Part shown: positions 5,261 to 39,299 of the stretch, piece by piece
How the letters are laid out: each line of letters opens with the position of its first letter
Numbering within the stretch: position 1 is the first letter of the stretch
Origin: Psammoneis japonica
Taxonomy: Eukaryota
DNA length: 51,585 nucleotides
Direction of reading: 5' to 3'
NCBI GenBank assembly: GCA_008632985.1
Contig: QPGO01000065.1
Coordinates: 372,001 to 423,585, forward strand
The notes under the pieces: model-generated
The model's input: the letters and a program-made list of their open reading frames with translations, nothing else
Database searches by the model: none
Told to the model about the DNA's origin: nothing
Translations under genes and position numbers: made by a program

Positions 5261-5503
5261 GATTCTATTTCCATTCCGTTCCAGAGGCACGTTTCCTCTT
5301 GTTTCTTCTTTTCTAGCAACAACTGTGCTGCCAGCAGTTGCAGACTTTTGTAGCACAACTCCTCTAGATGTCAGGGTTTCAATTCTAGAGAGAGTTGCAT
5401 TTCGAGTTTCCTCCATTACCTTCACTTCCTCACTTTTTCGTTCCAAAACCGACCCTAGCTTTCGAAAGAGGCAAACCTCGTTTTCCATGGCCATAACCTT
5501 CAA
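4853..5503 (-). CDS. Possible hypothetical protein or decayed gene running into domain A
   Basis: 216-aa ORF with a charged, coiled-coil-like N-terminus (MAMENEV...SRIETLTSR). No family recognised, and the 3' half lies in TA-depleted DNA where ORF length is uninformative. Confidence 0.25.
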   Translation of the reverse strand: MKVMAMENEVCLFRKLGSVLERKSEEVKVMEETRNATLSRIETLTSRGVVLQKSATAGSTVVARKEETRGNVPLERNGNRITLSPQKKKREDSASLNTPLFSRLERGSSKLSTNCNSNIGRQTGGPSTTGWKFIAFGASRCRVGMVSLSFGMAGFHGIGIGDGCIQRLESNQVARLACGWCLGGSPHWQQHLGGSPDWWQSSGGWPCWRLQSSLCG

Positions 5504-10412: not shown

Positions 10413-10714
10413 ATTGCTCTGAAGAGTGAAATCCATTCAGCACTACGAATGTCCTTTGAAAATCTACGGTTTGTCGTTGACGAGGTGCTCTGCTTCGTAC
10501 TGTAGTCCGATTCCCCTGGAGGAACAAGAGAGTTAGTGAATGCAACACTGTCCATGCTAGAACACATGTCCAACATAGAGTGCCATGCTCTGACATAGAA
10601 TCTTCTGCTTTGAAACACACAGCTCTTTCATGAGAGACACAAACAATGCTGTTCGAAGAACGTCTTTCTGCAGTTGAAAGAACAACGAACCATGGGAAGG
10701 AAGCACCAACCAAA

Positions 10715-11518
10715 TCAATCGGACCTTTTGCGTTTCCTTGGATTCTCCTCTTGCGGCAAGTAGTTGAACAAATCGGGCTTCTTTTGAAGCAGAGAAAATG
10801 GCAAACTTAGCCTACCCGGGGTTTTCTTGTGCCCGACTGTTGCCAACACCTGCGCCCACAGTCCAGGATGGGCGTTGTCAACCGCCAACAAGCCCCTCGC
10901 ATGAGCTTCCATCAACACCAAACGCAAGGATTTGCGGCCCCTCAAGTTTGCAAAATCAATCGGAAGGAACCCCGCGTTGCAGACAATGTTCAAACTTGTG
11001 CCTCGTTCAATCAGGAAGCGCGCCTCATTTTCATTGTTGCCCATGCATGCGCAATGCAGCGGGGTGCATCCCATTCTGTCCACTGCGCCCAAATCAGCAC
11101 CATTTTCCATCAAGAGCTCTGCAATGGCGGCACTGCAAAAACGAACTGCGGCAGCTGAGTGCAGAGGCGTGCGGCCGCTGTTGTCTCTAGAGCCCACTTC
11201 AGCCCCATGAAACAGCAGCAACTGCGCTTTGGATGCAGAGCAATGAGGCATGGAAGCACACAGATGCAGCGGCGTTTCACCTTTAGATGTCGCAACCTGA
11301 TTGACATTGGCACTGTGCTCCAATGGGAGCTTTGACATGTCGTTTTCTCCTTTTTGGAGAGCTGCAGCGATTGGAGTTTGCAGCGGTCGATGAATCCACT
11401 TTTTGTTCACGTCATGTCCAGCCTGAAGCATGTTTCGAGCTCGGTTCACGTCGTCCAGTAGAACAGCATGGCAAAAACCATGATTGGCCATGACTGTCGG
11501 TTGATTTCTAATTCTCAC
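10715..11518 (-). pseudogene. Ankyrin-repeat gene, ORF open but TA-hypermutated
   Basis: Four to five ANK repeats (GETPLHLC, GRTPLHSAA, GCTPLHCAC, GFLPIDFA) plus a C-terminal GLWAQVL...FSLLQKKPDLF tail. Only one Tyr in 267 aa, and it lies near the domain edge. Confidence 0.85.
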
Positions 11519-11750
11519 AACAATCTGTTCTGTTGCGATGGCTCTGTCAACTCAGTGTGTCATCGCCCATCGCGCAGAAGACGGACAAGTCTGCATTGGA
11601 AGTTGTGGAACGGGGGACAGAAAAATCAAACCGGATTTCTCCCCATCGACCGAACGTCTGTCCTGCCACTTGCTCATGTGGTTGATTTGCTGGCGTCATG
11701 TTGTGACGGTCCGATCGTTTCTTCTGCCTTTGCCTTCTGCGACAGAATGA

Positions 11751-12442
11751 GACTCTGTCCAAACACTGTCACAGGTGTGATCATGCCCACGTCACGCAGG
11801 CTTTTATGATGACATCACAGGTCACACCCGCAATGTTCTGTCCAAACACATTCGCACGTGTGATGGTGCCTCGTGGACATTGATCGAATGATTCAAACTT
11901 GCAGCACGCGAAGCAATGCCAGATGCAACATGAATGAACCAGCGACAACAACACGACGAGAGCGACATGACCATGACGACGAAAACGCAACCACGAGGCA
12001 ACAATGAGCCATGCGAAGGACACCTGTTGATAAAAAAATCATGCTTGTGCACAACTTGTGGCCAAATCAGTTGTCTGTAAGAGTGCACGACATGAATTTA
12101 TTTTAAGAAACTGTTTGGCAAAATGGTTGTGTCAGAAGAGTCCAGAATGGCACACAAAGCCCTTCAAAGACAACAAGCGGCTCATGCATGGTCTCATGTG
12201 GTTGCCTCATGTGACACACAGCCACACGTGCTTTGGACGCATCAAAAAACGATGCACATCGGTTGTTTTCGTGTTTCGTCGGTGGGGCATGATGTTGGGG
12301 CATGATGTTTCCGAGTTGGCATGGCCTAAAATTGCGTCATGCATGGGGCCAGTGACCACCAATTTTTTTGAAGAGGCTCATTTTAGGCGCTGTGACGTCA
12401 GGCATGATCACACGCATGACACGACAGTGTTTGGACAGGGTC
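11751..12442. mobile_element. Non-autonomous TIR element (MITE-like, about 690 bp)
   Basis: The left end gactctgtccaaacactgtc..gtgtgatcatgcc..acgtcac matches the reverse complement of the right end gtgacgt..ggcatgatcacac..gacagtgtttggacagggtc (19/20 in the outer 20 bp). No clean TSD. Confidence 0.75.
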
Positions 12443-12480
12443 CAAAACAACAAACGAAGCAGCAGCAGCACCGGTGTCAT

Positions 12481-12846
12481 CCCTGCTTGTGCGCACGAAC
12501 CACCTGGTGGTCCGTGTGCATTTTTGGGTGCACAGGAACCCACCTGGTGGTTCGTGTGCACCCTGCGCAAAATGCTGCGTAGATTTGCACCGAATTAAAT
12601 CTGAGTGCCTGCATCTGCAGTGGGCTCTGCGTGAAAACGCACTCGAAACAGTGTCCACCGAGCCGGCAGTCATGTGCCGGAACGTCGTGAAAAGCATTTC
12701 ATGTCTGAGAAAGAGTTCGTCAGGGCCGGCGAACAACACCCCTCTACGATGCGACTGGTATAAAATGCACATAAATGCACAGGAACCAGCATGTGGTTCG
12801 TGTGCAAATTCACGGACCACCAGGTGGTTCGTGTGCACAAGCAGGG
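12481..12846. mobile_element. piggyBac-like MITE (366 bp)
   Basis: 36-bp TIRs with one mismatch (ccctgcttgtgcgcacgaaccacctggtggtccgtg / cacggaccaccaggtggttcgtgtgcacaagcaggg), CCC...GGG termini, a 4-bp direct repeat tcat on both flanks (12477-12480 and 12847-12850), and internal repeats of gaacc..tggttcgtgtgca. Confidence 0.85.
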
Positions 12847-14449
12847 TCATTCCGCATCTCACGTTTTGCCATGTCATCCAATCAAAAAAGTTCATTGTTA
12901 ATGACAAGCATCGTCAATTGCAAAAGCGTCGTCATAACGGATCCTCGTAGCTCCATCAATTCAACGAAAACAAGTTGAACTTCATACAGCCAGAGATGTT
13001 TCTCTCAATTTCAGCAGTTTTCCGTCCCAGCTCCATGATGCCACGTGTAAAAATTAACCCCCCGTTTTTAACCAAATACCCACCTCGATCGACTAACAAT
13101 ATTCAGATACGAAGTTCATGACCCTTTTGGGGGCCTAGAATGGGGGTGAACGTTAGTTACTAACCAATCACTGAAAATCGTCCCTCGTACTTGCCCGTGT
13201 AATAAAGGTGCTACACGAAAAGTTGGTTCTATTTTGAAATACCAGATACCATGAACAATACATACCTATTACATTCTCGCAAGACATCGGTTTAATGAGG
13301 ATGAGACCGATAATGCTCATATCTTGTGTATTTTGTTGCTCTAGCAGGGGTCAAAGTCTAGCTAAAACTTCCAAAAAATTCGAGTCGAGTGGGTCATACG
13401 GGATTCAAGACACGTGACTCGCTGTACGATGAAGTGAAATTGACCCGTTCTCGACACCGAGATTAGATGATAACATCATCACAAACCGATTTTATGGCCA
13501 TGTTCTACTTTCTAATTTGTCTTTGACCTCGTGACAACTATATCTGACCTCTTTCATGCTATAAATGGGTGAAGCAATCCACGAATACTCATTCACAAGC
13601 CACACTTTTCTATTTTCAGATTTGACATTTGTGTCTTTGCGATCAATCTAGAGTATATACAAGCCAGGAAGGAGCTCTATTCACTATTATTTATCATTCT
13701 ATAGAAGAACAGCATCAGAATATTTTGCCAACCATGTTTGACTGCTTTTTTTCTTGAACCGTACGCCAACTTCATTCTTCATTTTCACTCTCATCCGCCC
13801 GACTCTCTCCCATTCAAGAATGCTTGGCTGAATGCATTACAGTTGCTTTATCAAAGTCTTCAAAAATAATCGTCTGGTCAATACCATTAGTCAAATGGGT
13901 TTGACGATGTGACGACGACGTTATATTCGTCGATGTGCTCATGCTAGGAAAGACAACAAGAATTGGCTGCATCCGCAAGAAAGTTGAGTGAGTCAACAAG
14001 TGGTGAGCCTTGGATACATTGATAGCACCATTTTGATTTTCAATTTACTTGCCTTTTTAAAAACTCGGACTTTAACTCAGTGGGTGCCGAATATCCGGCA
14101 AATGGTGAGTTGATGCGTCGTCTGCATGCAACATGGCGTCACGAACGGGTGCAACGGCATGTTTGCATAAAACTCGACTCTCCGCCGTTCTCTGATGGTC
14201 CCTTTACAACCCCAAACGAAAGATAGTGTAATAAACCTGCTGTAGTAATGGGACTAAAACCGACGATTGTTTAGACACCTTATCTACCGCGTCAATGTCA
14301 TCGTCGGCTCCTGCGGTTTTTTGACAAGTTCTCCGTGTTGTCACCGCGGTGATGGTCTGTACGAACATCCGGAGCGCGCCTGCCATGCCAGTTTGAAGTT
14401 ACTTAAGGCCTGGGTCTCATAGCAGTGACAAGGACGAACAATGCCATAC

Positions 14450-16110
14450 AGCTTTCATCCAAAGCCTCCTCTTCTTTGAGTGAAACCCACGACGGTCAAG
14501 AAGAAACGCAAGCGTCTACAAAAGCAGAGTCGTGCCATGGATGCTACCGAGAGCGACGAGAGCGACGACTCCTTCATCCATTCCGCCATGGATCTTAGTA
14601 GCGAGCATGAAATGATTTTTTCGACAAGTGCTATGCCGTCCAGCACAAGTCAGCCGTCAAGAAAAGCACAAGGCACAAGCACACGGATAACGAGAAGGAT
14701 GAAGAGGCTGTTGTTCGTTGTTTCGTCGACCACGACTCACTCGTGACATTGCCTCTTTGAACTTTGAACGAAATGGGTCGTCTATCGTGTCTCCCAAGGA
14801 TGCAGCAGTGGAAGAAACCAATTTGGGGTCGGCTCTTGACGAGACTACTACTACTGCTAGCAGCAAACCTTCCGCAACTATTTTCAGTTACTTTTCCAAA
14901 GCTACAAGAAAACAAGAAAGTACTACAGCTGCTGCTATGGAGGATACCGCTACACTACCAACAATTCAGACAACATGCCCAAAGAACCCTCTCGGCTCAA
15001 GCAAACCATGGATGGATTTTCGGAACACTTTTTGGGATTTAAGCGACGCGATGCTCACGAATTCATGTCGGAACTGATTGATGGAATGCATCAATAAGAA
15101 GTAGATGCCGGTAAAATAGTAGTGGCTGCGGGGGTGGTGGTGGTGAGAAGGAAAATGGCATACTACACGTGATGAGAGTCGTGGGGACAAGACAGAAGTG
15201 TTGGAAACAACGTAGGATACTACTACGGTGGGGGGCAAGAGTGGTGGTGGGATGGAGAAAGGAGAAAGAGGACAAAACGGCGGACGACAAGGACAATACG
15301 GAAAAAAGTAGATAACTGGTTGGAACCGTCCGTGGTGCATGACTACTTTGGTTTGGTCGTCAAGGTTTTGCTCACGTGTGGTTCGTGTGGATACACCAGG
15401 TACGACAAATGAATTGGATCTTGACTCTATCTTGCTATGGCTATCATCGCGTTACAAAATGCTTTCCTTCTTTCTCTCTTTATAGATGCAAGAAAGAAAT
15501 GTACCGTCACTTATCGATTTTTTCTCTTGCAACGAGGGGCGCCAAGTCACGTTCGAAAAGTGTAAGGCGGTACGACGGCGATGCAAACCATGGATATTGT
15601 GTCAAGGGCAATGTCTGTAGCTCTGGAATCTTCTTTTTGCGCACATGACACTCACACTGCTTTTTTCTGACAGACCAAAGTGGTGTTTTTGCTTCATCTC
15701 AAGCGATTTGCCATGGTTGAAAAGCCGAGACGACCCGCCGCAGCAAGGGTGAGAATAAGGAGAATCAACCGCCGCCCGAATTGACGATTCGTTAAAATCG
15801 GGTACGATGCACAGAATTGCAATTTCTTTTTTGTTGCCGGTCAAGTCTACTATCGAGTGAGTGTTTCATCCCACAGGCCCCTGTCGACATTCCGGTAGAA
15901 GTGTCGCTGGACTCCTTTTACAGCAACGACGTGAACGACGACGACAAGGTAGTATCTCACATGTAAGCGTCGCCCTTTCAACTCTTTTCGGTGGTGCACC
16001 ACATTGGAAGAACGGTCTTTTCGGGGCTTTAGACGGTGAATGCACGTGGCGTGGGTGGCCAAGTTGTGACCTTTGATGACACCAACACGGGCAAGACGGC
16101 ACCGAATGCA
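14450..16110 (+). pseudogene. Ubiquitin-specific protease (peptidase C19) pseudogene
   Basis: HFLGFKRRDAHEFMSELID (about 15025-15080), VHDYFGLVVKVLLTCGSCGYT[intron]CKKEMYRHLSI, LHLKRF (about 15692) and a His box SVVHHIGRTVFSGL*T...VTFDD with the catalytic His and following Tyr destroyed. Stops and frameshifts are present and no Cys box was seen. The 5' limit is uncertain. Confidence 0.85.
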
Positions 16111-16752
16111 CATTGAAGCAATAGATGCAACGCGGACCGAACAGGTTCTTTTTCAGGACACCCCAGTAAACCCCACGAGACTGGCTACTTGCCTACTAGT
16201 ACTCGAGAAACCCCATACAGGGGCTGATAGGACAAAACCAGATGAACTCTATCCGGCTGCGACTTGCAAGCAGATTCACCAGGCTCTCGCAATGACAAGT
16301 GCTCCTCTGTTTCTTGCCTCTTCTGACAACATCGATAGTAGGCTACTAGCAAAACAAATAGGGCCATAAGAAAAGTTTGAAAGAGTTGTACTAGCTATTT
16401 GTAGGGCAATGATACCGAGAACGTTTGGCCTGAAGTTGTTGTGGTAGTAGAAGTTGTAAGACGATAACACGTAGGAAGCACCAATAGTACAAATCATCAC
16501 CTGTTGGTATCGCAACAGTTGATCACGTCATGAGTCTCCGAAACGGTGTTGACATTGGCGCCGAGGGATGCTAAACGATGTTTTGGTCAGGTTTCGATAA
16601 CAGAAAAAAAACGTGTCCCGGTTTTGTGATCTCTGGGACCTACGTAGAAACCACGTAGCCACCAGTGCTCATGTCATCTTCCACGCTTTGCTCTTTCCCA
16701 CTCCATCTCACAAAACGGACAACTCGTCTTTTGTTGTCATCAAGCATCAACC

Positions 16753-18092
16753 ATGTTGATCTCCCTCATGATCTTTATTGTTCTCTTTGCGACCATCCTT
16801 GCCGGTGGCGTTGCTTTTATCGGCAATGTTGACATTGCCGCATTCTCGGTTTTCGTTGCTTTGAAGTCGATTTCGAAGAAGCTTTTCGACGATGAACAAG
16901 TCGGCACGTTTCAACTTGATCTGGCCCCGACTGTTCAAGAAGTTCTTTCGATTGTTCCGTGTTCCAATGGCAACACTGTCTTCTTCAAGTTGACCGCACC
17001 TTGGTTCAAATGTTGCGTTCAGAATCTTGCTCGTTTTGTGGTCAAGACTCGTGTTGAGAAAATCTACGTTTTTCCTGCCGCCGCCAACGAAGCCACCACG
17101 CAAGCCGTTGCGGAAATCCTTCCCACCTGCACGCAGAAAATGGTTGCTGCTGTGTCTGGAATGATCCAAATTGCTGCCATTTCTTGTTCTACAAACTCGG
17201 TTCTCGTTGAGCTTGTGTTCAAGCCTTCCTCCTCCGACTCGCGTCCTGACGATTTCGAAGAAGTCGTGATTGACAACCTCAAGAAGAAGCTTCGTATTTT
17301 CGCTCCAGGCATTCAAGCGAATGTTTTGCTCAAGAGCAGCAACACGTCCTCGGGTCCATCCATTGATGTGATGGTGATCCTCGAGCTGTCAACATGCGAC
17401 TTTGCCACGAATGTGGAAACACCCAACCAAAGATGCAACGTTGTGTTCAATCGGAAAAAGTGCACGCCCTCCCTCCCATTCGATGCGAGCTTCACGCTCA
17501 ACACTCAAGCTCGTCCAATCCGCGGAACACCACCCATCCGATTGCTCTCATCGAGGCTCCATCGCCTGTTTTGTCAACCACGATTGTCCATTCCGTGCCT
17601 GCAGCCTTCAACATGGTTAACGAAAAGGTGAGCACGCTCAAAACAATCCAGCACGCTTTTCGAAACATCCTACAATGTGTTGCCACAATGAACGCTGCTG
17701 CTGCAACTGTTCAGGTCGCCTTCCAAAGCTTCATTGTCAAGCGCTGCAACCACGACAAGAAACTCGCCGCCGTCGTGAGGATCCAGGTCGCTTGCCGAAA
17801 ACATTGCGCTTTCCGAAACATCCTGCAGCGAGTTGCCGCGATGAACGGTGCTGCTGCAACTGTCCAGGTCACCTTCCAAAGCTTCATTGCAAAGAGTCGC
17901 AAACACGAGAAGAAAGTCGCCGCCGTTGTGAGGATCCAGGTGGCTTGCCGACAACATCGCACCCGTGTCAAGAACAAGGAGAAGTTGAACCATTTCAGAA
18001 GCCTTTTCAAACTCCACTGTTGGAGGGATGCCGGTGGCGTTTTCAGCACCCATCATCCTGTGATTTTTATGAATTCTCGACTCCCTGCTTGA
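16753..18092 (+). pseudogene. IQ-motif-containing orphan gene (frameshift near 17530, TA-hypermutated)
   Basis: N-terminal hydrophobic segment. The second frame has IQ-like motifs TIQHAFRN, VQVAFQSF, VRIQVACRKH and VRIQVACRQHRTR within a 153-bp internal tandem duplication (17661/17814). Confidence 0.6.
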
Positions 18093-18132
18093 ATGGCACA
18101 GACAAAGAGAGTGAGTGCAACGACGACTTGGC

Positions 18133-18664
18133 AATGAAAATGCCCGCCAAGAAAAGCACCGTGGAAAGCATTGCAGTGATTGCCGAGACAATCCAAACAC
18201 TTCTCGCAGCAAGCAACAGGATTCCGCCGCTCCAAACACAGCCTGAAACAAGCACTCCGTCGCTCCACGACCAACCTGGAACAAGCTCGTCGCAAGCCAA
18301 AAAGCCGTCTTTGAATGAAGAGCGCAAGTCATTGAAACGTTGCATTGAAGCCGAGGAAGCTCCAAGAAAGAGGAGAAAGCTTGAGTTCCACGAGCCCGGC
18401 AAACCAAATCCGTTCGCTCTTGAGTTGCTTCGACGAAAGAAAGCACCAACACCCCGTCATCAGCTCAAGCGGTCCCCTCCCAAGTCCAATGAGAATGTCA
18501 AAAAGAACATTCAAACAATGAAACGGAAGTCCATTGAAAAGATCCGACGCCAGAGGAAATGTGAGCGGATGTGCAAGCTTCGTGGCATTGGAGTCAAAAC
18601 ATTGAAGACTGGCGACCCTGTGAACGCAGAGGAGGAGGATGCAATGGAGAGTGAGATGTTGTGA
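18133..18664 (+). CDS. Small basic orphan protein (probably a mutated relic)
   Basis: Lys/Arg-rich ORF MKMPAKKS...MESEML with NLS-like PRKRRKL. No Tyr, and RKCERMCKLRG reads like RKYERMYKLRG. Confidence 0.4.
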
Positions 18665-20339
18665 AGGTTTGCGTGGAGCTTGTCTAACCGCTCTTCTTTC
18701 TCACCTCTGGAATCGCGGAATGTGCCCAAGAACTCAAACGAGGTCGGTGTCTCTGATGCCCGAACCACACTGTGCTAAGTTGGTGCGACTCACAGTGACG
18801 ATTCTGTCGAGTCGCGCAGCCCATCGGTTCCGAGAGTTCATGCGATCTGTCACGCATCCCAGGGGAGGAAGAGAGCATGAAAGACAAGCTCCACAATCGT
18901 CAGATTAATGACAAGAAATCATCACAAATGAACATGTGTTCAAAGAATGCACCGCTTGGCACCACGCACCCTGTTGATTGTCACCTAGAGATGCTCGTTG
19001 ATGAGACACAATGTGCACTGTTCGAGTGCTGCTCATCGTCAAAACAGCGACTCAATGTCACTGACAAAGGCATTAGAAAGCGATTGCGAGTCATTCATTT
19101 GCTTCGTTGCAGTGGTCCCGTCCAGCACGGTCCAGCTGCCAAGTGCCATGGCAAGAGGTCCCACATTGCCATGCTTGGTGTCCTCGTGACGGAGATGACA
19201 CACTCCCTGCTTCATCTGCCAGGCTCCAAGAGAAGTGGAATGATGGTTTTTGAGCTGTTTAAGTCCACAGATCTTTTGTGATGCTCCCGGTTCGACACTT
19301 CAATGCGAAAGAGTTGTCACGCCATCGGTTCGGAGTCATGTGGAAACAGGCTTTTGTCCCTCTTGAGAGCCAGACAGTGCCCAAGCCTTGGCAAATCACC
19401 CCAACAGCTAACATTCCCCTCTGCCGAAATGCATGTGCTGCTGCAGCTTTAGAAATCGGAATTTGCTTCACGTTCTTGGTCCCAGACACGATGCGTTTAC
19501 AAGCAGCAAGATTGCCGAAAAGTGTCCCACTCGAAGATGGGGTCAACAGTCAAGTTTCCACACCCCTCTTTGTCGCAAATTCCACAAGAAATGGACCACT
19601 GGGTCGCCAAGTGCAGAAGCGTCGGACAGGAGCCCAAACAAGAATAGGACGCACGGTCGTTGCCTGACAGTGGCGACCCGATTCTAGGTGGACCTGCACG
19701 TCCACCACCCAAAACCCACGAGTGCCTTCAGAGGGTCACGCAATCCTCCGAGGCCGACTGCCCCATCTTGATGCCATTCAATGTCCCAACCCCAACGAAG
19801 CTCGCAGTCCCAGCAGACAAATCGATCCACTGGCCTCTCCCTCCTCCCACGCCTCCATTCAATGATCATCTGATTGCCGAGAAAGCCTTGACAACAAAGA
19901 AAGACGGTTGGCAGAGCAACCAAAAGCAGGTAAAACGTTTGGCAAGCATTCACCCAACCCGGCGAAGCACTGACTCGAACGGCGGCGACAGCAGCTCGCA
20001 TTCTCCAAACAAGACATCTCTTGGCCAAGAACTCTTTTTTCCTGCTTCCACACTGCGATTTCGGGTGTCGCTCTCCAGTGTGCATCAAAACACAGCACAA
20101 CAATCCGCAATTCTACCATGGAAGAGAATCTCGCATTGAACGGATTGAACGTGTGTTGCACTTCTACTTGCAGCGAGTCAAAATTATGCCAAGCCCCACA
20201 CTTGCTCTTGCCGCATGGGCCAAGCCCGTGTCGCGAGCGAGATTGGCCACCACAATGAAACACGACGAGCAAGGCAGGATGTTTCGCTCAATTTTTCAAA
20301 TGTGGACATTGCAACCTTGACGTCAGACACGAAGCAGCT

Positions 20340-20700
20340 CCCGGAGGTTCAATGACTGAGTCTCTCTGGTTGCAAGCAGCTCAAGTCCGTGCCTGCCAAG
20401 ATTTGCTGACGCCAAGCCTTTGAGAAGCTGCACCCATTGCACTCGCCTTCGCTTCCCAACAAGATTGGAGTGCAAAGCCAGCCTTGCGTTCTCGATGTGA
20501 GCACTTGTCACTCGCTCGAGACGTCACTTGCCCGACATTGGCTTGCTGACAGGTCTTGCGGATCTCTGCCTTGTCAACTGCAAACTCACGAGTCTTCCGC
20601 CCGAGATTGGCAGGACGAGTGACTGACTGAGGCACTAGAGCTGCTGTCCATGCCGCCGTTCAACGCATGCAACTTGGCAGGTCCGCTGTTTTGGTCTTGT
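20340..20700 (+). pseudogene. Leucine-rich-repeat gene fragment
   Basis: Frameshifted pieces LSLSGCKQLKSVPAKI*, SLPNKIG..VLDVSTCHSLET and PDIGLLTGLADLCLVNCKLTSLPPEIGR. Confidence 0.75.
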
Positions 20701-22679
20701 TGGGCATTCATGGATTGGTCAAGGTTTGCCGAGTCCCTCTCATACAGAGAGCATGGATGGCACCTTTTGCGTGGCGTCATCCCTGGTCATCCCTCACGAT
20801 GGTTGGTGGCACACAGATTGCATGTGGTGGTGGAAGCAGGTGCAACTGCATCGACTCGCATGTCTCCATCATTCTGGTCTGGTGTGCAGCGACATGGCGT
20901 AAAAGCACTGTGAAACGCGACACGCTGCTGCTCAATTTTGCGACAATGCATTCGCCCGGGGAATCGAGCTCTTTTTTTGTTCTGCATCCGCACCCAAACT
21001 TGTCGAAGTCCATTGGTTCATGCCATCAAGACCGTCCAGTGACACATGATCCACATGCTAAACAAGGACCGAAAGCTCCCGTTGGAAGACGCGCTGCGAT
21101 TCAGAAAAGAATGTTCGGATCCTGCCCCCAGTGTTGTCTGTCGCCCTTCAGCCAAGATTCATTGTGCGCACCTCCCCTAAGGCCATGCCAAGAACTTAAG
21201 AGGCGCAACCAGCGGCATCAAAAAATGGTCCCCATGAGTGCAACAGAGAGGAACTGTGGCTGCCTCCAGCCCAAGGGAGACCCGTTTGTTCGACGTCTCC
21301 ATGAGCACACTCCTCGAACACAAGTCTGGAATGTCATTGAGTGCATGCGATGCAGGTGTGCCTCGCGTTTCCTTTTCATTCGTGCCGGTGTCCAAAGGCA
21401 CAGCTGCTGGCACTCTACTCGAATTTCCGGCACACCCTGCAAGGTCTTGTTGCAAATGCTGTGGCACGATGGGAACAAACAAGTGTTGCCCATGCTCTGG
21501 CTTGTTGTGACGAAATGGCCTCAATGGTTTTGAGCAATGACGAAAACAATGATTCACCGGCATTGACTCGGGCAATCAAAACCAGTGCCCAAACGCCGCG
21601 TCGATCGACATCCCAACGACGACGACTGACTCTCGGCGCTTGCAAATGGGCAGGTGGAGCTGTGTGCATGAGTGCTTGTGAACAGGCAGTTGTTTTAGAG
21701 AGTCGACTCTTTGTGTTGAACACAACATCGTCAAAACACACAGCAGCCCTAGTCGCACCACCGTAGCCCTAAATCTTCTCTAACAGCAGAGGGCCATCTA
21801 CCAGAGCATGGAGCAGGGCCTGCTTGACTGCTTGCTTCCCTTCCTTGTCAATTGCTGGAAAGATTCGCATTGGATGTGCTTCCGCATTGAAGACATGCTT
21901 GTTGTTGGACGGCAAATAGCGGCAGGTACCGTGCATCATTGTTGTATATCTTGTCGCTCGAGACGACGTTGATGCGTGCTCCATGTGCTTGCAAAATCTT
22001 GTCCGCAAAAGTTCAACACTTCTTCCATTTCTTTTCTTGGTTGATGGAGGACGAGTTCCAGGTCTCGAAACTGAAAGCCAATGTTGCAATCACAGAACGA
22101 CTTGCCCGCAATGTCATACCGGTAAGCTTTTTCTCGATGCGATGCTGATGGTGCTTGCATCTTCAATCTGGCATCCTTTTTTTTGTTTGTGCTCTATCGC
22201 GTTCATCTTATCGGTTGTAGGCGTGTGTTCGCCATCATGACAAATATAAAACGTTCGTTACTGTAGCGTTTTTATTATTCAAAGTCATACGCGCTCTTTC
22301 TATACCTTATATATTAATGTTTTTTGAAACACATAAAAATCATTTGATTAGATGGACTGAAATTTTCCAAAGGGGGTACATCACGATTTTTTTCAGTCGG
22401 ACTAATCAAATTCGATTTTATATGCTATACGGCGTATAGGATATAAACTATATCTTCTACGTTGCCAAGAAAGAAGACTTTCATACCAATCTCATTTCCG
22501 GAGATATTGATTGAGACACAGATACGACGCAACGACTCTATCCCCACTCCGCGCGCACTGTGCATGCCGGTAGCAAAAGTTTGAAAGAGTTGTGCTCTCT
22601 AGAGGAGGGAAGACATTTCTACACTTAAAAGGGGGGAAGAAGGGTCATTGCTCTTTGTTACGTTTGCTGTCAGTTGACA

Positions 22680-23025
22680 CTTTCCTCATGGATTCTCATG
22701 GATCCTCTTCCTACAAATCTACGAGCGGAACTGAGTAGGGCGGAGCAAGGTCACTATTACAAAAAGTCATTTTCATATACTGCGTTTGCTTCGTATAAAG
22801 TACGAGAGAAAGTCATTCAATTGAAAAAACGGTCATTTTCTCAGTCATCCACACGAATCCACATGGTATAAATCTACGTACGAGAAATCAACGGTCAATG
22901 CGAAGAGTCATTCTCTAAACTCCGATTCCTTCGTACAATGTACGTGAAAAGTCATTGAAAATTTCAAAATTTCCATGAGGATGACTGAGGATTCGTGAGG
23001 ATCCGTGAGGATCCGTGAGAAAAAA
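22680..23025. mobile_element. Possible degenerate MITE with inverted 10-bp subrepeats (also at about 39379-39725)
   Basis: Left tttcctcatggattctcatggatcctc resembles the reverse complement of right gaggatccgtgaggatccgtgagaaaa. Confidence 0.4.
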
Positions 23026-23404
23026 AACACACGACACAAACCCGACCCCCCAGGTCGCTGTTATGAGCTTAGCATCCAACGCCGTCGCGATCGCTGCTTT
23101 CTGTGGTTGTACTAGTACGTAGGTGTCGTGTGACTGAACCGTCACTTCAGCTGGGATCGAAGACATGTCGAGACCGCGACGCTGTCCCAGCCGACGGACA
23201 GTGGTCCTTGCTACGACAAGAACAAGAAACCCTGCCAAATCACCGATTTCTTTGGATTGTTGGATGCCCCCCAATAGGAAGCGGTGACAGGAGTAGCTGT
23301 GGCCAGTAAGGAGGACAAGATTGATGACTACCAGCTCCATACCTGCCTCAGCAACCTGAGTTCGATACCTTCCACCGATGGCAGCCCAGAGCCCCGCGGG
23401 GTGG

Positions 23405-24474
23405 CGATGTCACGCCGGGACAACATATTCCACTCAACATGGAGAAGATCGAGGCCAATCGTAATTTTGCAAACAAGCTTTGGAATTGTTGCAAGTTTGT
23501 AAAGGGCAGCGCTCTGAGAGACTTGAGCGAATCGAACTTATCTGAGCGGAGTGTAGATGGACCGATGACAGAAGAAGAATTCAATGCTCTTTCTCTACCG
23601 GAACGCTATATCATCACGACATGCCATCGTCTTGTGGTTTTGGTGACGGATGAAATCGAGAGGTACCAGATAGTGGCTGCTGGAAGCAAGGTGAGCTTCT
23701 AAAGACAGACAACGAATCTGGAAATGGCTGTTATCTAACTGAGACACCGCTCATTGTTTTTACAATTCTATGGGTTTTTTGTGGAATCAATATGCAGACT
23801 GGTAAGTTGAAATTTCGAAGACTCACCTTTACGAAGGAGCAGGAGCAGGCGAAAAAAAGAGGACGCTGAAGCCGCTCGACGTGTTCTTGTCTGTGTTTTG
23901 GACACGAGTTTGCGTCTGCTACACCCCTAAATGCCTTACGTGACTGAGACTTGCGGATTGACCTCGGATGGAAGCTGTAAGAACTTTCGAATGTTTTCAG
24001 GCTCTTATTCGAAGTATCCGTAACACGAGGGCTGAGTACAACGTTAAGCCGGGGAGTGAATCAGGGCGACTGTAGTCGCGAGTGAAGATCTGCTTGAGGA
24101 TATTGAAACAGAGCTCAAATCTCTTTTTGCTCTTGCTAAGCTCGACCCGGATGAGGTAGCTGTGCATGCAGCTGGAAGTAAAGATGCCAAAGAAACGATG
24201 GAGATTGGCGAGTCTGCTAAGATTGTAGTCCAAGATGGTGTTAAAGCGAATTTGCCGCTCTTGGGATTGATTGACGCTGAGAAGGAACGCCAGTGGTTGC
24301 AAAAACAAAGCGAAAAGCTGACAATGGAGATCCAGAAGCTTACATGGAGATTGAAGTCCAGTGGATTTGTTGATAAGGCACCTGCTGCTGTTGTACAGCA
24401 AGCCAGGATTAGCTTGCAACACTGGAAGATCAATTTTCCTAAATCAAAAGCAGCCTTTTGGCACTTCCCAAGTA
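23405..24474 (+). pseudogene. valS: Valyl-tRNA synthetase C-terminal fragment
   Basis: TPGQHIPLNMEKIEANRNFANKLWNCCKFV, LWNQYADW*VEISKT, VLDTSLRLLHP*MPYVTE, LIRSIRNTRAEYNV and LIDAEKERQWLQKQ...GFVDKAPAAVV. In-frame stops are shared by both copies. Confidence 0.92.
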
Positions 24475-24978
24475 GAACTCTCAGATTTCGTCTTATCTAT
24501 ATATCTCTCTCTCTAGCTAGTTCAAAACTAACTTCACGTCTTCTTCCCCAGATTTAATGATTGAGGAAGGGGTAATGGCAACTGAATACTGAACAAGACA
24601 CATTGTCAAGAACAGAATAAGGCGAGCGAAGCTTACAATTGAACAGCCGACTATTACAAACTACTCTCCTTGGTAGAGGGAGTTTTAGCATTACTTTCGA
24701 ACATACAAACTTAGTCGATTGCAATTGTACGACGTCGATGGACGTTCCTATGCCAGAATTGCAAAATATGCTTTGTAGTGATATTCAATATTCAGATATA
24801 TCTCAACTTGACTACGGTAGCATAGTACTCTACAGAATAAGGCAATCAAAGGGAACCGCCGACTATTACAAATTACTCTCCCTCGTGCTCATCGAGGAAG
24901 CATTAGTATTAGTTTCAAACATACATACATGTGCTAGATGGACGTTGCTAGAGGGCCCAGTAGCAACAACATCGCGAC

Positions 24979-26094
24979 TTAGGCAAGACGGGTCTTGCCT
25001 TGTTCCTCGCGACCGCGAAGCTTCAGCTCCAGCTCCAGCTCTGCAATGCGCTTAACGAGGAAAGCACGATCCGCATCCTCACAAGAAGCTGCTTCCTCGA
25101 TGCGAGGCATGGTGCGAGCACGCTTGGAAGGGGACTCAAAAGAGCTGGCATCCTCTGCCTCAGCAATGCTTGGAGATTCCACAGTGGGTGGATTCCTACT
25201 AGACTTGACAGGGGTGGGAGGCACACGCGCGCCCATTCGAGGAGGCCAATGTAGGTTGCAAAACGTTTGGCGAGTTCCCAGTGCTTTTCGTTCGGGCGGC
25301 GGAAGGCGAGGATTTGAGCGGGACCGTAGGTTTGAACAAACTCCGGGTCATCAAACGGAAGCGAGCGGGAAACGTCGGTCTCTTCCCCACCCCAGTTCTT
25401 CACAGCATACATGAGATCCTCGATTGCGTCGACACTGTACTTGAGGTAAATGTCCATCGCAGACCTAACCTTGAGCGCAGCCGGGACATCTGACGCATGA
25501 AACTGTAGCAGCAACGGCTCAATATCTGCGCCGACTGGAACTGTCCCCAAAAAGAAGGTGTGAGCGTTCCACTCGCGGGTCAAGTCGTTGTGTTCCGCCC
25601 TCCACTCGTTCTCAGATTCTTCGGCCAGATTAATCGCGTCGTCCTCGCGCTGCAGCTCCGCCTCCATCATCGTCACAGCAGCCGTCGAGCGCGCCAACCG
25701 CTCGCGATCTTCGGCCTCGGTAGCCCTTGCTTCAGCCAACGAAGCTGCCCGCTTTCCCCTCGCCTCGACAGCTGCCGCCTTCCGCTGGCTCAAACGTAAT
25801 CCTTCGGCCTTGCTTGCCCTGCGGTAATACGACAAACAGCAATACCAAGAGGTGAGTATCCTCGGAACCTCAGAACAAAAGTCGGTGCGAATTAGCAATC
25901 ATCAGCACAAAAACTCACTCGAATTTCGCGTCGTACTCTCGCCGCACGGTCACAGGGTTCCTCGTCGAGTTTTCCAGCACGACGTTCTTCGCCCTCTCCT
26001 CCGCAGGAAGCAATACATGGGTGCCGAGCGTCAGGAGAAGAGCCTTCTTCCACTCCTCTTGCGCGTAAAACGTTGGGCTGAACCTCATGGACAT
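24979..26094 (-). CDS. Orphan spliced gene (one intron, 25819-25918), coiled-coil-rich
   Basis: The GTGAGT...CCGCAG intron joins YDAKFE to ASKAEG in frame. A single frameshift near 25232 is absent in the second copy. Confidence 0.65.
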
Positions 26095-27109
26095 GGCGGA
26101 TGATGGTACGGATATGATGTGCAATGGACTCGTCGCAAAGAGAAAATTATGAGAGCAAGGAATGAGCAGACTGAATGAGCAGTCACGGGAAATTTACGGA
26201 CATGAGTTGCTGGCGGCATTTATGAACCACCAGGACGCGTCTCCTTTTTTCCCTCCGACGTTTGTTGCAGACAGAATCGGGAGTGTGTTTGATGTATTTG
26301 ATTTTTGTCCAACGAGTTTGTGCGTCAATTGATGAGTGAAGGAGCCACGGTCATAACATCCCGTTCGTCGACTCGCGAAAAGCCTTGTGCTGGACTCTGT
26401 CATTAACAGCCGACAAAAGTATGGGGTACAATTACTATGTCACTTCTCGGATCTGGAAACGAATGTTACCCTCACTTGTTGTAATCTGACTGTGCGCTGC
26501 TGCTTTGTAGAACGTCGAACCTGCTCATCGTCTCATCGTCAAGTTTCTTGGAGCAAATTTCCAAATTCTCGAATTTCAAAATCACATGTGGACGAGAGAC
26601 ATGCCACGTGGAAGCAAAAACGTTCATCTGTATTTTGATTTCGCACCCAAACAAACCGCCAAGCGAACTCACAAGGATACAGTGCCCTCGGTAAACACAC
26701 ACCCACCGTTCTCCTCTCTCCTCTCGCCTTGACTTACCTCAGTAGTCTATTTTAGGGCTACCGGTACAAGCTTTATTGCTAAAGGCTTACCTGGTATCCT
26801 CAAGCACGATACGAATGCCATTCTACCACTAGGGCCCTAAGACACGTGGCAGAATGATGCCTGATGTTCGCCACGAGAACGCTGTGGGCTGGACTCTGGC
26901 GCATCAATCCGCGCAGACGCACAGAGTGTTGAAAATCCTCAAGTAAGTGTTGGAACTCATTCTCCAGAATCATCCGGCCTCGGCTTGAATTATGATAAGG
27001 ACGACAAGGGTGATCTTCCTATATCGTTTGATCCCAATTTTGGTGGTGGTCTACATGCAAACGAAGAAGAACAGCAACGGAGGAGCTCTCTTTCCAAAGC
27101 TGTTTTGTT

Positions 27110-27410
27110 TAATCAAGGCCATGCGGTTTGGAAAGCTCCATGCATTCGATTTATTTGCACGTATGGAATTGATTCAATGTGCAGTAATGCAATACCCGGA
27201 TGAACTGCAACACATCGATCATACAAAAGGCAACACGCCTCTTCACGTGGCATGCATGGCTCCTCCAGTGCTACAAGTCGGATGCTGTTGTAGTGGGTTG
27301 ACGAGGATGCGACCGGCTGTCTTTTTGAAACAGCATCCCGAGGCGGCCAAGGTGCGAAACCGTGAGGGACAATTTCCGCTGATGGTTGCACTGGAGCACA
27401 GCAAGGACGA
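27110..27410 (+). pseudogene. Ankyrin-like repeat gene fragment
   Basis: QYPDELQHIDHTKGNTPLHVAC...LKQHPEAAKVRNREGQFPLMVALE. Confidence 0.65.
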
Positions 27411-27531
27411 TGCGGAGCACGCGGCTGCATCGTTGGCTGGGTTATCTTTACGCCAGTGGTGAGCTCACCCTAGCTTTTGTTCTGTGCGTGTTCCGTTGTC
27501 AATGCTTGCCAATACCCACACTTTCCTGTCA

Positions 27532-28345
27532 GGTGCAAAAATCAATGATGAAGTTCGATAACGTAAAACAGGCGGCTCATTCGGACTCTTCGTTTACCGC
27601 TGGGCCTCTCCGTGCAGCAAGAAGAGCAACCAGTACAATACAGCACGCAGTGGATAGGTGGGTCTTAGTGTTGCGAATTGTGGACGTTGACGCACACCAC
27701 GGAAATGTCGTAAGTATTTGATGGGTAGTGTCTTGGTCTTGATTCGAACGATTCTCACAGAGTTTATTTTCTTTTGTTTTCGGTGGACGGAAGAAATTGT
27801 GAAAAAGTGCTACGACCCGGGGAGGCTGTTCTTCTTTTATATCCACCTCTATGACAACTTCAAGAGAAGAGGCAACGCTTACAAGCTTTACCCGGGGAGT
27901 AGTGACGCTCACAATATCATCAACGTCCCTATCACTCCGCTGTGGAAGCAACAATGAGATAGCCCCTCGCAAGTTCCGGCTGCTCCCAAAACATTTCACA
28001 ATACACGCAGAAAAGTGAAGGAGGCGGCCGCCGCCGCTACGTTCCATCCACCACCACCCTTCGGGGACAATTCCGCACCGTTGTCATCTCCTCTACCACC
28101 AATAGGCGATTCTCCGCGAGATTTTGTGGGGGCTATGAATCGTCGTCGGAGCATGGGGGTGGAGGTCTCGAAAGCGCTCGAACAAGTGACGTAGAAAGTG
28201 TGTCTCAAAGAAGTGCAACTGTTACATCAAAGCCGGGGAGTGCACGGTTCCTTTCTGGATCTGGGCGGCATACGTACCGACCGGCAATTCAGCATCACCT
28301 CTTACCTGCTCTCCGTGCTTTCAACCCCGGTCTTATCTTAATCAG
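27532..28345 (+). pseudogene. Class II-type histone deacetylase fragment with an internal deletion
   Basis: SDSSFTAGPLRAARRA..QHAVDR joined almost directly to IVDVDAHHGN (the RPPGHHA segment is missing), an intron, then TEEIVKK...IHLYD...YPG...INVPI and LLPALRAFNPGLILIS. Confidence 0.88.
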
Positions 28346-28359
28346 TGTCCACGATGCGT

Positions 28360-29445
28360 CGCCTCACGTTCTCTCCAATGAACCGCCGTCCGAAGGAAGT
28401 GCACCGCGTCATACGCAATTTCTGGATCTGACCAATGGCGAAGGAGGAGGCGGTGAAAGCTCGTTTAGCCCAGAGAGTACAGCAGAAGAACTTCGGCCTG
28501 AATCTACAATTACTAGTCCTACTGCCAGCAGTATGAAACGTCCCGCACGATTTGACCCAAACACGCCCGGTAGAGTGGTGGGTGGTGGAAGCTGGCCAAG
28601 AACTCACGGGGCGCTGGACTCGAGAAGATCACGAAGCGTTCCTTAGCGCTCTTCAACTGAATGGGAAAGAATGTAGAAAGGTAGCAGCCAAGGGGAAGAC
28701 GAGAACGGTGGTTCAGACAAGGACTCATGCGCAGAAGTACTTTCAGAAAGTAGATACGGTGATGAATGGTGCGGAGGGTAAAAAAGGAGAAGTCGCGCAT
28801 GTTGAAATGGGGGTCGCCGTAGAGGCCAAGAAGGCCAGTGCACAAAAGAAGAAACGTTTACCCCGTCAGCAGTCTGCTTCGACTCAGGCAGCCGCGCATC
28901 TCATGACTAATTTGTCATCGGTGCCTCAAACTGTAGCGTCGGTGAGTCCGTATGCTTCTTGTGGCGTTCCCGCTACCCATGGTTCGGGTCACTTTCCCAA
29001 TCCTCATGGATTCTCCACATCGTCGTCGGGAGCGCCGAATGAGCAACCCCTCCGACAACTGTATTCAGTGTCGTATCAAGGGGCTTTGGGCCAATGCAGA
29101 TTAAGGCTTGTGACCCAGATTCTGCCTTTGCGCGAGGAAAATTCCCGAACCATCACCGGCAGCGTGTGGGAAGAGGAAGGTGGCAGAGATTGCCGCGGCC
29201 CGAATGCTTGCCGATGTGGCGGCGAGTGGGGGTAGCACAGGAAAGGCAAAGAAGAAGCTCTCCTCTCTTGCGGGTGACGAAAGTCCACCTCCTCATGATG
29301 CTGAGAAGGGTCCGGCTGCTAGACGCAACGTGGCAAAGGGGCTCTCGCTTCAGATCGTGAACCCCGAGTCTCTGGGTGTGCCGCATTCGGGAAACAAGAA
29401 AAGGAGGGGTATAGATGGAGAGGCTTCTCCGACAACTCCGTGGGA
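28360..29445 (+). pseudogene. SHAQKYF-class single-repeat Myb transcription factor, degenerate fragment
   Basis: TGRWTREDHEAFLSALQLNGKECRKVAAKGKTRTVVQTRTHAQKYFQK. The conserved YG and W positions are substituted, and the fragment is fused to an HDAC piece upstream and a FEX piece downstream. Confidence 0.88.
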
Positions 29446-29454
29446 TGTGGTCAG

Positions 29455-30320
29455 TGGCCTTTTTGGAAGGGATATGACGATTGGATATTGATCAGTCTCC
29501 TTGGTTTCTTGGGGATGCTCTTTGTTTCTTTGGGATTGTTGGGGAGTGGCAAGCACAAGTACAATGCGCAACTGTTTGCGTTGTACAACACACTCACACC
29601 ACAACAACTTTTTCTTCTGCATTGAATCAAGTACAAATTGAAGCCTTGGAGTATGTTTTTCCATATGCAAGGGAGAAATGAATGTCATGGATCATTACGT
29701 CAATGATGGACGTGATCTCGGGACGGAATAACGACCCAACAATAACGATGATTCCTTGTATGATTTGAATTTTACACAAGAACAAGATGATGACGAAGAA
29801 CGAATTCATGTAGTGGTGCATCATCAAGATGACGACAACGAGAGTGACGAACTTAACAACAAGAAAAAGCAAGACGTAGAGTTGAGTACCATTCGAGAAG
29901 CAGACAAACCCAATAGCTCAAGACTGTAATGACAAGGAAGACGACAAGGACGCTGTCGTGGGCGTTCTTTCGAGGAGTCGACTCAACTACGTCGTCTCGC
30001 GTCATTACACGCAATGGCAATGATCCCTGTCGGGACAAAGCCATACTGCTACCACCGAAACCCCGTCGAAGGCAAAGGATTGGAACAAGTTTTTCACAGT
30101 GTGTCGGTGTCGGCCATGAGCTCCGGCTTGTTATTAGTATTGGGATTTCGGACGGGCTTTTTTGGAGCGCTTTCCAGTTTTTCCTCGTGGAATTCCAGCA
30201 TGGTGATGCTGTTGCAAAATGGATGTATTGGACAAGCCGTGGTGGGATACGCGATTGAATTGCAACTACCCATTGTATCGTATCGGTTTTACCATCATGC
30301 GGCGTTGTATTTGTTTGTTT
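29455..30320 (+). pseudogene. Fluoride exporter FEX/CrcB-family N-terminal fragment
   Basis: LVLG(F/L)RTGFFGALSSFSSWNSSMV...VGYAIELQLPIVSYRF resembles the CrcB GxxTGFxGxLTTFSS motif. Upstream hydrophobic GYDDWILISLLGFLG segment. Stops and frameshifts present. Confidence 0.75.
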
Positions 30321-30789
30321 GAAGATGTCGGCGTGAAACCAGACGAGAGATGAGCGACGAGAATGTGGATTGCGATGGATCTCTGTTGCTGGTAAATCAG
30401 AGTCTTTGAGTTCCAAACCTTAATAAGAACGACATTGACGGAAATAGATAGAGCAAGCCTCTGGATTTCTAGTCCCGGGGCGCAAACAACGAAGCTGGAG
30501 CCACAAAATACGCACACTGTCATACAACTAGAGCACAATTCATTTGCCAAAACCCATCATCCGAATTGATCAAGCTTCCAATCATACGGTACATAATGAA
30601 AGCTCTAGCGTAGAATAAACATTGCATCCACTCAATTCCGTTAGGTTCAAGGTTTCTTGTACGTAATGAAAATCGATTCAAGCAAGGCGAGGCCGCTTGG
30701 TTTCGATGCGCCGCTGCTGTCATCCACAGGACTGAAGAAGTGCTTGGCGGTGTGCTGATGCGTTACCTGCAAATTCTGTAGCAACACGC

Positions 30790-33200: not shown

Positions 33201-33279
33201 AACTACTGTAGCATGTCTCAGGCATTCTCTTCATCATCAGCATACGTTTGTATTTGCTTTATTTTCTTCGATTGTTTTA

Positions 33280-35448: not shown

Positions 35449-35519
35449 GGTTCACAATTTAGTAGCATGCAGAAAACGGCTTGCGTGTGCGCGGCATAAC
35501 ACCACGAGATCGGGACGAA

Positions 35520-38370: not shown

Positions 38371-38640
38371 TTTGTAGCCCCCAAGGAACCCCCACGAGAA
38401 AGTTTGTAGCCCCCCAGGAATGCAATCGCGAGAAGTTTCTAAAGCGTCAGGAATCATGATGGAAAACTTTGTAACCCCCCAGGAACCCCCGCGCAAAAAT
38501 TTGTATCCCCCGAGGAACCCCGGCGAGAAAGTTTGTATCCCCCCAGGAACGCAATCGCGAGAAGTATGTCAGCCAGGAATCACAATGGAGAACTTTGTAT
38601 CCCCCCAGGAACCCCCGCGAGAAAACTGGTATCCCGCGGA
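38205..38640 (+). repeat. Minisatellite of ~30-32-bp units (aaagtttgtagccccccaggaacccccgcg) with a ~130-bp higher-order period
   Basis: About ten recognisable units between 38209 and 38635. Resembles transposon subterminal repeats. Confidence 0.88.
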
Positions 38641-39276: not shown

Positions 39277-39299
39277 ATGCATGACCTTCGGTCATGCAT
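39277..39299. other. Perfect hairpin at the duplication breakpoint
   Basis: atgcatgacc-ttc-ggtcatgcat (10-bp stem) ends where copy 2 of the duplication begins. Confidence 0.8.

Follow-up and report, generated by a model that had tools for sequence, protein, structure and literature searches.

We describe a 51,585-nucleotide stretch of the Psammoneis japonica assembly GCA_008632985.1 (contig QPGO01000065.1, positions 372,001 to 423,585 of the forward strand; hereafter the window, numbered from its first letter) in which kilobase-scale segments have lost nearly all of their TA dinucleotides, among them a 5.1-kb segment at 16657–21750, termed block C. We consider it quite likely that these blocks were brought close to saturation by TpA-specific transitions whose frequency on each strand depends on the two bases 3′ of the adenine. 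The blocks are new loci of a known kind of TpA hypermutation, described from Bigelowiella natans in 2026 (Mettrop et al., bioRxiv 10.64898/2026.01.13.699255). The flanking rule, including its reach to the second 3′ base (position +2) and the sparing of TARR (R, purine; Y, pyrimidine), is new mechanistic detail.

A sliding count of TA resolves six near-TA-free segments, with edges that are sharp to within 100 to 200 bp: block A (1–5265, truncated by the start of the window), block B (10597–12745), block C, block D (30811–33095), block E (35498–38375), and block F (48454–50846). Blocks A and D are depleted of both TA and CG, blocks B and C are depleted of TA with normal CG, and CG loss in block E is confined to 35723–36770. 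Block F is a duplicate copy of block D and lies inside the second copy of a duplication (22600–33956 and 39299–51585, 97 to 99% identity); pooled statistics use blocks A to E, which are mutually unrelated sequences. As background, we took the 18,969 bp of nonduplicated DNA outside the blocks, which contain 804 TA sites.

Several lines of evidence show that the blocks result from A:T→G:C transitions at TpA sites that affected both strands and arose in place. The observed-to-expected ratio (O/E) of TA is 0.04 to 0.12 in the five blocks versus 0.62 in the background, and TG (O/E of 1.5 to 2.0) and CA (1.3 to 1.8) are correspondingly high (background, 1.13); among the NA dinucleotides, depletion is limited to TA. 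In block C (O/E of 0.10 for TA, 1.51 for TG, 1.33 for CA, and 0.86 for CG), TA is dense through 16656 and dense again from 21764. Losses and gains are similar in size: blocks B and C together have lost approximately 36 TA per kb and gained approximately 42 TG plus CA per kb, and both products are in excess in every block (in block E, by about 28 TG and 39 CA per kb). The same change is legible at the protein level in block E, where a minus-strand frame (36513–37508) shares 64% identity over 233 amino acids (aa) with a protein that we call P0001. None of the 11 tyrosines of P0001 in the alignment is kept in the block E frame, where five are replaced by Cys (TAY→TGY) and three by His (TAY→CAY), with Met, Phe, and Gly each appearing once. 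Furthermore, blocks D and F differ by three CA-versus-TG double differences in 2.3 kb (31434/5, 31482/3, and 32617/8), as expected from an ancestral TA converted independently on opposite strands, and no such differences occur in approximately 9 kb of duplicated background. When the tandem units in block A are compared, alternation of TG and CA is likewise the commonest double transition (22 column pairs, versus 0 to 17 for the seven others).

The TA sites that survive carry a pronounced flanking bias. The initial annotation of this stretch had tallied 32 survivors by hand between 16720 and 21760, and our recount is identical: 16 YTAR (4 TTAA, 5 CTAA, 3 TTAG, and 4 CTAG), 11 YTAY, 3 RTAR, and 2 RTAY, the last pair being GTAT at 17295–17296 and ATAC at 20743. 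Its reading of that tally, that RTAY sites are hit hardest and that YTAR sites resist, holds for block C and for the other blocks. Among background sites (124 YTAR, 214 YTAY, 213 RTAR, and 253 RTAY), YTAR is the rarest class (15%, versus 31% for RTAY), whereas among survivors it is the commonest. The core of block C has 14 YTAR, 12 mixed (YTAY or RTAR), and 2 RTAY survivors (n = 28; chi-square P = 3.3 × 10⁻⁶ versus background), and when 28 TA sites were drawn at random from the background, at least 14 YTAR came up in only 3 of 100,000 trials. Blocks A, B, D, and E, which constitute an independent repeat, have 34, 21, and 4 such sites (n = 59; P = 1.7 × 10⁻¹⁵). When the five blocks are pooled (48, 33, and 6; n = 87), the distribution departs from the background of 124, 427, and 253 (P = 5.6 × 10⁻¹⁹), from a flat 1:2:1 expectation (P = 1.2 × 10⁻¹⁰), and from the flank classes of the blocks’ own TG plus CA (P = 2.9 × 10⁻¹¹), and the order of the survivor classes is the same in all five. 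Trimming internal edges by 200 bp leaves 43, 28, and 2 (n = 73; P = 6.9 × 10⁻²⁰); the four RTAY survivors of block E are all situated at its left edge (35358–35403).

These frequencies are captured by a two-strand model in which survival equals exp[−(ρtop + ρbottom)] and ρ is set by the base immediately 3′ (+1) of each A. The fitted values are 0.35 for A, 0.60 for G, 1.88 for C, and 2.02 for T. This additive model is far superior to a flat rate (likelihood ratio test, P = 5 × 10⁻¹⁸) and does not differ significantly from a saturated model of ten site classes (P = 0.17), such that the strands can be regarded as independent and recognition of a palindrome is unneeded. These results support an enzyme-like preference over neutral drift, as the initial annotation had argued; the UAC context of TadA-type deaminases, to which it had likened the pattern, does not fit as well, since a T at +1 is as susceptible as a C and the motif is TAY rather than TAC. 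Including the +2 base improves the fit further (P = 1.8 × 10⁻⁹). When sites are grouped by how many purines the two strands together carry at +1 and +2, relative survival rises from 0 without any purine (0 of 64 background-equivalent sites) to 0.01 with one, 0.07 with two, 0.18 with three, and 1.15 with four, and all ten site classes are reproduced by per-strand ρ values of 2.54 for TAYY, 1.92 for TAYR, 1.28 for TARY, and −0.05 for TARR. Sites with TARR on both strands (YYTARR) are not depleted at all: the 15.8 kb of block sequence counted contain 26 of them, a density of 1.6 per kb (range, 0.5 to 2.9) that compares with 1.4 per kb outside, as follows if TARR is not hit on either strand, and they account for 26 of the 73 core survivors but for 27 of the 804 TA sites in the background. 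Block C contributes six, among its 28 core survivors (18986, 19260, 19450, 19685, 21178, and 21197).

In every flank class, survivors taken alone confound a pyrimidine at +1 of the A with a purine on the 5′ side of the T (position −2). The products, which are an independent line of evidence, tell these alternatives apart: in YTAY and RTAR contexts, a +1 rule predicts YTGY and RCAR, and a −2 rule predicts YCAY and RTGR. In those parts of the blocks that are depleted of TA only, YTGY plus RCAR exceed the background by 15.9 per kb (95% bootstrap interval, 9.7 to 21.6) and YCAY plus RTGR by 3.7 per kb (−2.3 to 9.8), with a probability of 0.003 that the difference is zero or less; the two excesses sum to approximately 19.7 per kb, compared with 19.1 mixed-context TA lost per kb. 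The ratio for YTGY plus RCAR is above the background ratio in five of five blocks (pooled P = 5 × 10⁻⁴), and the share of the excess product derived from an A with a 3′ pyrimidine is 0.81, where the survivor rates predict 1.95/(1.95 + 0.48) = 0.80. This asymmetry places the decisive base 3′ of the A, not 5′ of the T, and, in combination with the two-strand fit, supports the earlier proposal that the preferred target is 5′-TAY-3′ on either strand. An equivalent contrast exists at +2: at sites with TARR on one strand, in the same parts, products are in excess by 7.4 per kb on the other strand and by −0.02 per kb on the TARR strand (P = 0.014).

The preponderance of YTAY over RTAR in block C (11 versus 3), which the initial annotation had called unexplained, is a strand asymmetry, as the two contexts are reverse complements. 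The sense strands of 12 long background open reading frames (ORFs) already have a YTAY:RTAR ratio of 94:63 (P = 0.016), an excess attributable to the fact that in-frame TAR is a stop codon. Survivors in blocks C, B, and E, counted along the strand presumed to be sense, number 21:6, which is not significantly different from 94:63 (P = 0.088). The imbalance thus largely reflects coding-strand composition and small numbers, although a mild additional strand bias is possible. Selection for in-frame tyrosine was considered as a cause of the YTAY excess and rejected: no more than 2 of block C’s 11 YTAY sites are Tyr codons in frame (longest ORFs, by hand).

Our preferred reading is that of an enzyme acting on the adenine. 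On each strand, TAYY, TAYR, TARY, and TARR would be exposed to change to different extents (−ln survival of about 2.5, 1.9, 1.3, and 0, respectively), with change of the top-strand A yielding TG and change of the bottom-strand A yielding CA. Survival of a TA would require that both of its adenines be spared, such that RTAY would be lost first, YTAY and RTAR would be intermediate, and YTAR would be lost last. Chemically, adenine in DNA may be hydrolytically deaminated to inosine by a zinc-dependent deaminase of the cytidine deaminase (CDA) fold, as has been proposed for B. natans, and the process may serve as a defense directed at mobile or foreign DNA; we infer both the chemistry and the role. 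Damage to the DNA so hit would come from missense changes (Tyr to Cys or His) and not from nonsense changes. A more tentative proposition is that the enzyme is a dedicated DNA adenine deaminase with a new specificity or from a new family, as opposed to the housekeeping ADAT2, and acts in a eukaryote as an adenine-directed, stop-free counterpart of fungal repeat-induced point mutation (RIP) that disables mobile and viral DNA. The proposition rests on the footprint, a TA with one or more pyrimidines among the two bases that follow it and with TARR spared, which is not known to match any characterized adenine deaminase, the comparison having included ADARs, amphioxus ADAT2, and ADAT2/3.

A number of points weigh against this interpretation. 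Among the tRNAs deaminated by eukaryotic ADAT2/3, those for Leu, Pro, and Ser present U-A-R-R in the anticodon loop, whereas TARR is spared here. The 3′ preference also differs from that of amphioxus ADAT2, which, when acting on Escherichia coli DNA, is reported to prefer GAA when the target is A and TCG when it is C (PMC10354150). Moreover, every normalization that we applied, whether to background tetramers, to a flat expectation, or to the TG plus CA of the blocks themselves, presumes the composition of the blocks before mutation, and the data amount to just 87 survivors and, in the background, 27 YYTARR sites, such that the relative survival of 1.15 on which we call TARR sites immune has a wide interval. 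Within block C alone, the product tests point in the same direction without reaching significance (Fisher P = 0.052 for the +1 test; P = 0.18 for the other), and the tyrosine replacements of block E are too few to discriminate when sorted by preceding base (three Cys and one His after a pyrimidine, two and two after a purine). A segment with very high summed contig depth (12673–14673, see below) retains normal TA, so repetition alone would not attract the process. Lastly, the sequence counts fit the adenine or its paired thymine as the chemical target equally well.

This last point opens the way to the best-placed alternative, one that we nevertheless judge unlikely: that the same base pair is changed through its thymine, by T→C at 5′-RTA-3′ or 5′-RRTA-3′, as, for example, by modification followed by mispairing or repair. 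TAYY on the strand of the A is RRTA on the strand of the T, and every count applies to both. However, we know of no enzyme that converts T to C in DNA, whereas conversion of A to inosine gives exactly the transition seen, and a 5′ T is typical of adenosine deaminases. The main text of the preprint on B. natans, which records both A→G and T→C, likewise cannot assign the base (10.64898/2026.01.13.699255).

Somewhat less likely again is the possibility that mutation was blind to context and that the blocks, as foreign or mobile DNA, had an abundance of YTAR and YYTARR and little RTAY from the outset. The blocks do appear to differ in origin from the background, given the Gag-like lead in block E and the raised contig depth over several blocks (both considered below). 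But the products expected from RTAY can be seen: in blocks B and C together, RTGY and RCAY exceed the background by 7.2 and 9.4 per kb, respectively, and 13.1 RTAY per kb are missing. The bias also holds against the flat expectation and the blocks’ own TG plus CA and is the same in five unrelated blocks, and a context-blind process would have lowered YYTARR along with the other classes, whereas its density equals that of the background.

We regard as improbable that YTAR sites were retained by selection for stop codons, 3′ splice sites, branch points, or poly(A) signals. A YTAR site reads TAA or TAG on both strands, 10 of the 87 survivors lie in a branch-point-like TAAC (by eye), and an open ankyrin-repeat frame persists in block B. 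Yet the frames in the blocks look degraded: their Tyr content is 0 to 0.4% and their Cys content is 4 to 10% (Tyr is 3 to 4% in frames outside), and a Pfam domain is recognizable in only 1 of 81 block frames of at least 90 aa, namely, the ankyrin frame. The 48 YTAR sites in 17.6 kb far exceed any need for stop codons, and selection of this kind would produce neither strand-additive, purine-graded survival nor strand asymmetry among the products.

A route through RNA, in which an ADAR- or ADAT-type enzyme edits A to I at UA and the transcript is then reverse transcribed and inserted, seems still more improbable. ADARs act on RNA and favor a 3′ G, whereas a 3′ G is protective here relative to C or T. 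Such editing should also affect a single strand, but TG and CA are both in excess in every block, and blocks D and F diverged by CA-versus-TG differences after they had been duplicated in place. In favor of this route are the possible derivation of block E from a retroelement and the 5′ U that is typical of known adenosine deaminases, including ADARs (Discussion of 10.64898/2026.01.13.699255); the B. natans mutations, in contrast, occur in a transcriptionally silent, single-copy region according to the main text of the same preprint. Finally, base-calling or assembly errors at modified bases, for which the many 1-bp indels in the second half of the duplication and a single N between identical 958-bp ends might speak, can hardly have mimicked the loss of TA and CG, in view of the close match of public-run contigs to the blocks (from a run that is possibly the assembly’s own source), of a tyrosine loss, mass balance, and flank rule unlike random error, and of the same signature in B. 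natans, where Illumina reads were compared with a reference genome published in 2012 (10.64898/2026.01.13.699255, main text).

Block C itself has few recognizable contents. Two 153-bp tandem units (17654–17959, plus strand) encode what by eye resembles an IQ-motif repeat, with Cys or His at positions where such motifs often have Tyr; a Pfam search of the units gave no match, and the differences between them are old and of mixed spectrum and, hence, uninformative. No relatives were found for the frame at 16648–17628, and none were found for the frame at 20631–21530 among 1.84 billion representative proteins, nor could convincing terminal repeats be identified at the flanks of the block. The left edge lies just upstream of the ATG (16753) of a 292-aa frame with a hydrophobic N terminus, and the domain may begin close to where a transcription unit starts. 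In a separate public run, the summed contig depth over block C is 5 to 6 times that of single-copy flanks, which hints at related copies elsewhere, although summed depth does not measure copy number.

The remaining blocks are heterogeneous. Block A (O/E of 0.06 for TA, 0.11 for CG, and 1.98 for TG) contains a tandem array at 1054–4104 of about 16 units of approximately 190 bp, which share roughly 70% identity, are A-rich on the plus strand, and match no protein family. Block B (O/E of 0.12 for TA, 1.62 for TG, and 1.58 for CA) contains the open ankyrin-repeat frame (10718–11551, minus strand; 278 aa with a single Tyr; Pfam Ank_2, E = 6.6 × 10⁻²⁹). This frame has 271 matches at E ≤ 10⁻¹⁰, of which the 120 listed are all generic, at 26 to 46% identity; ankyrin relatives were, for that reason, rejected as a source of ancestral states. 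Block D has O/E values of 0.04 for TA and 0.10 for CG. For the block E frame, P0001 is the sole relative among 5.8 billion proteins. P0001 itself has no match in Pfam, and its AlphaFold model is unusable (mean predicted local distance difference test score [pLDDT] of 40.5), but its feature-based neighbors carry Retrotrans_gag and zf-CCHC domains (scores of 0.90 to 0.93), a lead by which P0001 is possibly a retroelement Gag and block E possibly retroelement derived. No DNA encoding relatives of P0001 was found in viral contigs or metagenome contigs. At the right edge of block E begins, exactly, a tandem array of 30- to 32-bp units with one TA apiece (38269–38648).

Contigs from a separate public run agree closely with the blocks, with no differences over 962 nt (10818–11779) and one over 1,083 nt (4115–5197), although the matching run could be the source of this assembly itself; differences between contigs and the window are mostly transitions among the 40 of 484 that were listed, a number too small to test context. 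Among sequencing runs, the stretch was located in a single study, and no RNA run was listed for it. Summed contig depth is raised over blocks A and C and part of block B and is single-copy-like over the ankyrin part of block B. A very high summed depth (2,100 to 3,950, versus 55 to 60 at single-copy flanks) occurs at 12673–14673, where TA O/E is 0.6 to 0.7 and GC content is 40 to 43%, hinting at a high-copy element that has escaped hypermutation.

The window as a whole is eukaryotic, in that its stop-to-stop frames include COG6, a valyl-tRNA synthetase arm, a Myb domain, and ankyrin repeats; no long bacterial-type ORFs occur in the 51.6 kb. In a protein-cluster search, one background ORF matched only bacterial hypothetical clusters, a result that is uninformative as to the organism. 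Pfam scans of the window’s frames recovered no viral hallmark genes and no gene for a CDA-fold deaminase (HxE...PCxxC), and tRNA and Rfam scans of the window returned no matches. CG depletion (O/E of approximately 0.1) extends over 1–4900, 30788–32950, and 35723–36770, as well as 48430–50540, and the 43 CG sites that survive in the CG-depleted parts have no flank bias (P = 0.12); the loss of CG from some TA-poor blocks is perhaps due to a second process, such as cytosine methylation of silenced DNA. Two features of the second duplication copy concern the assembly. A single N at 46697 separates two 958-bp stretches that are 99.4% identical (45740–47653), which probably represent overlapping contig ends that were left unmerged where the assembly was joined. 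In addition, 32500–33950 and 50170–51570 differ by some 30 small indels, mostly of 1 bp, far more than are seen elsewhere between the copies, which suggests lower sequence quality toward the end of the window.

Hypermutation of this kind also alters how DNA appears to annotation software. Counted on both strands, the blocks contain 4.3 TAA, 2.8 TAG, and 46 TGA triplets per kb, compared with 17, 18, and 37 outside. Conversion of TA to TG or CA eliminates TAA and TAG without ever generating a new stop, and the result is long open frames in all six phases. Gene predictors may call such frames genes, and false long frames may explain why most “genes” in TpA-poor clusters lack annotation. Loss of TA with retention of YYTARR provides a sharper annotation detector than indices of TpA and CpA+TpG, and block C would escape the published thresholds. 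TpA-directed hypermutation of integrated DNA was first reported in 2026, and the four-base footprint is usable as an enzyme fingerprint: it could rank candidate deaminases by their in vitro preferences, and it separates the process from those of ADAR, ADAT2/3, and APOBEC. A natural DNA adenine deaminase with a defined context would, moreover, be of interest for base editing.

The closest known counterpart is that of B. natans, as presented in the main text of the preprint (10.64898/2026.01.13.699255). In mutation-accumulation lines of this species, 231 of 302 new substitutions fell in integrated giant-virus and virophage regions, 230 of these 231 being A→G or T→C and all at TpA; the mutations arise during vegetative growth, at a rate about 1000-fold above that of the genome, in integrated DNA that is single copy and transcriptionally silent. 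Clusters that are poor in TpA and rich in CpA+TpG, mostly unannotated, number 124 in this genome, and the authors propose an ADAT2 homologue as the enzyme. The Psammoneis blocks share with this system the exclusive TpA target, the TpG and CpA products that imply both strands, the kilobase scale of the domains, and a general lack of annotation. Mobile or foreign DNA, which is among the B. natans targets, may be among those here too, as the Gag-like lead in block E would suggest. The blocks differ in that depletion is deeper here (TA O/E of 0.04 to 0.12, versus 0.45 in the B. natans giant-virus region) and in that three blocks are also poor in CG. Neither CpG nor a flanking rule is mentioned in the main text of the preprint, although its Table S2 and its Fig. 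2B, whose legend refers to a “specific mutation motif,” may bear on them. When the preprint’s thresholds are applied to the window, 14 of 51 1-kb windows qualify, with a run of at least three only in block A, and block C fails the CpA+TpG cutoff in four of its five windows.

Fungal RIP resembles the present process in its dinucleotide-specific transitions, in its sharply bounded action on mobile or repeated segments, and in being read from dinucleotide indices. RIP, however, converts C to T mainly at CpA, making TpA and stop codons and lowering GC content, whereas A:T→G:C changes raise GC content here and make no stops; with TA destroyed and CA and TG enriched, the direction is the opposite. 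RIP also requires duplicated DNA, whereas here the ankyrin part of block B is single-copy-like and the high-depth region at 12673–14673 is unmutated. APOBEC3 enzymes similarly leave a deaminase footprint with a short context in integrated mobile DNA, but they target cytosine (in TC or CC) and generate G→A changes on one strand during reverse transcription. The hyperediting of double-stranded RNA from repeats by ADARs shares A→G changes with a 5′ U, but here both strands of DNA are changed and a 3′ purine protects.

The tRNA adenosine deaminases TadA and ADAT2-ADAT3 act on an A with a T equivalent (U33) on its 5′ side, in keeping with the depletion of TA alone among NA dinucleotides. The sole substrate of bacterial TadA, tRNA-Arg, reads U-A-C-G, and this sequence belongs to a susceptible class under the rule found here. 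Differences are that a T at +1 serves as well as a C and that the +2 base matters here. The TCG preference that amphioxus ADAT2 is reported to have for C (PMC10354150) also finds no parallel among the CG survivors of the blocks, whose flanks are unbiased. Conversely, a TadA-8e variant, A48E, is reported to edit A within YAC (PMC13109818), which indicates that a 3′ preference is attainable within the TadA fold.

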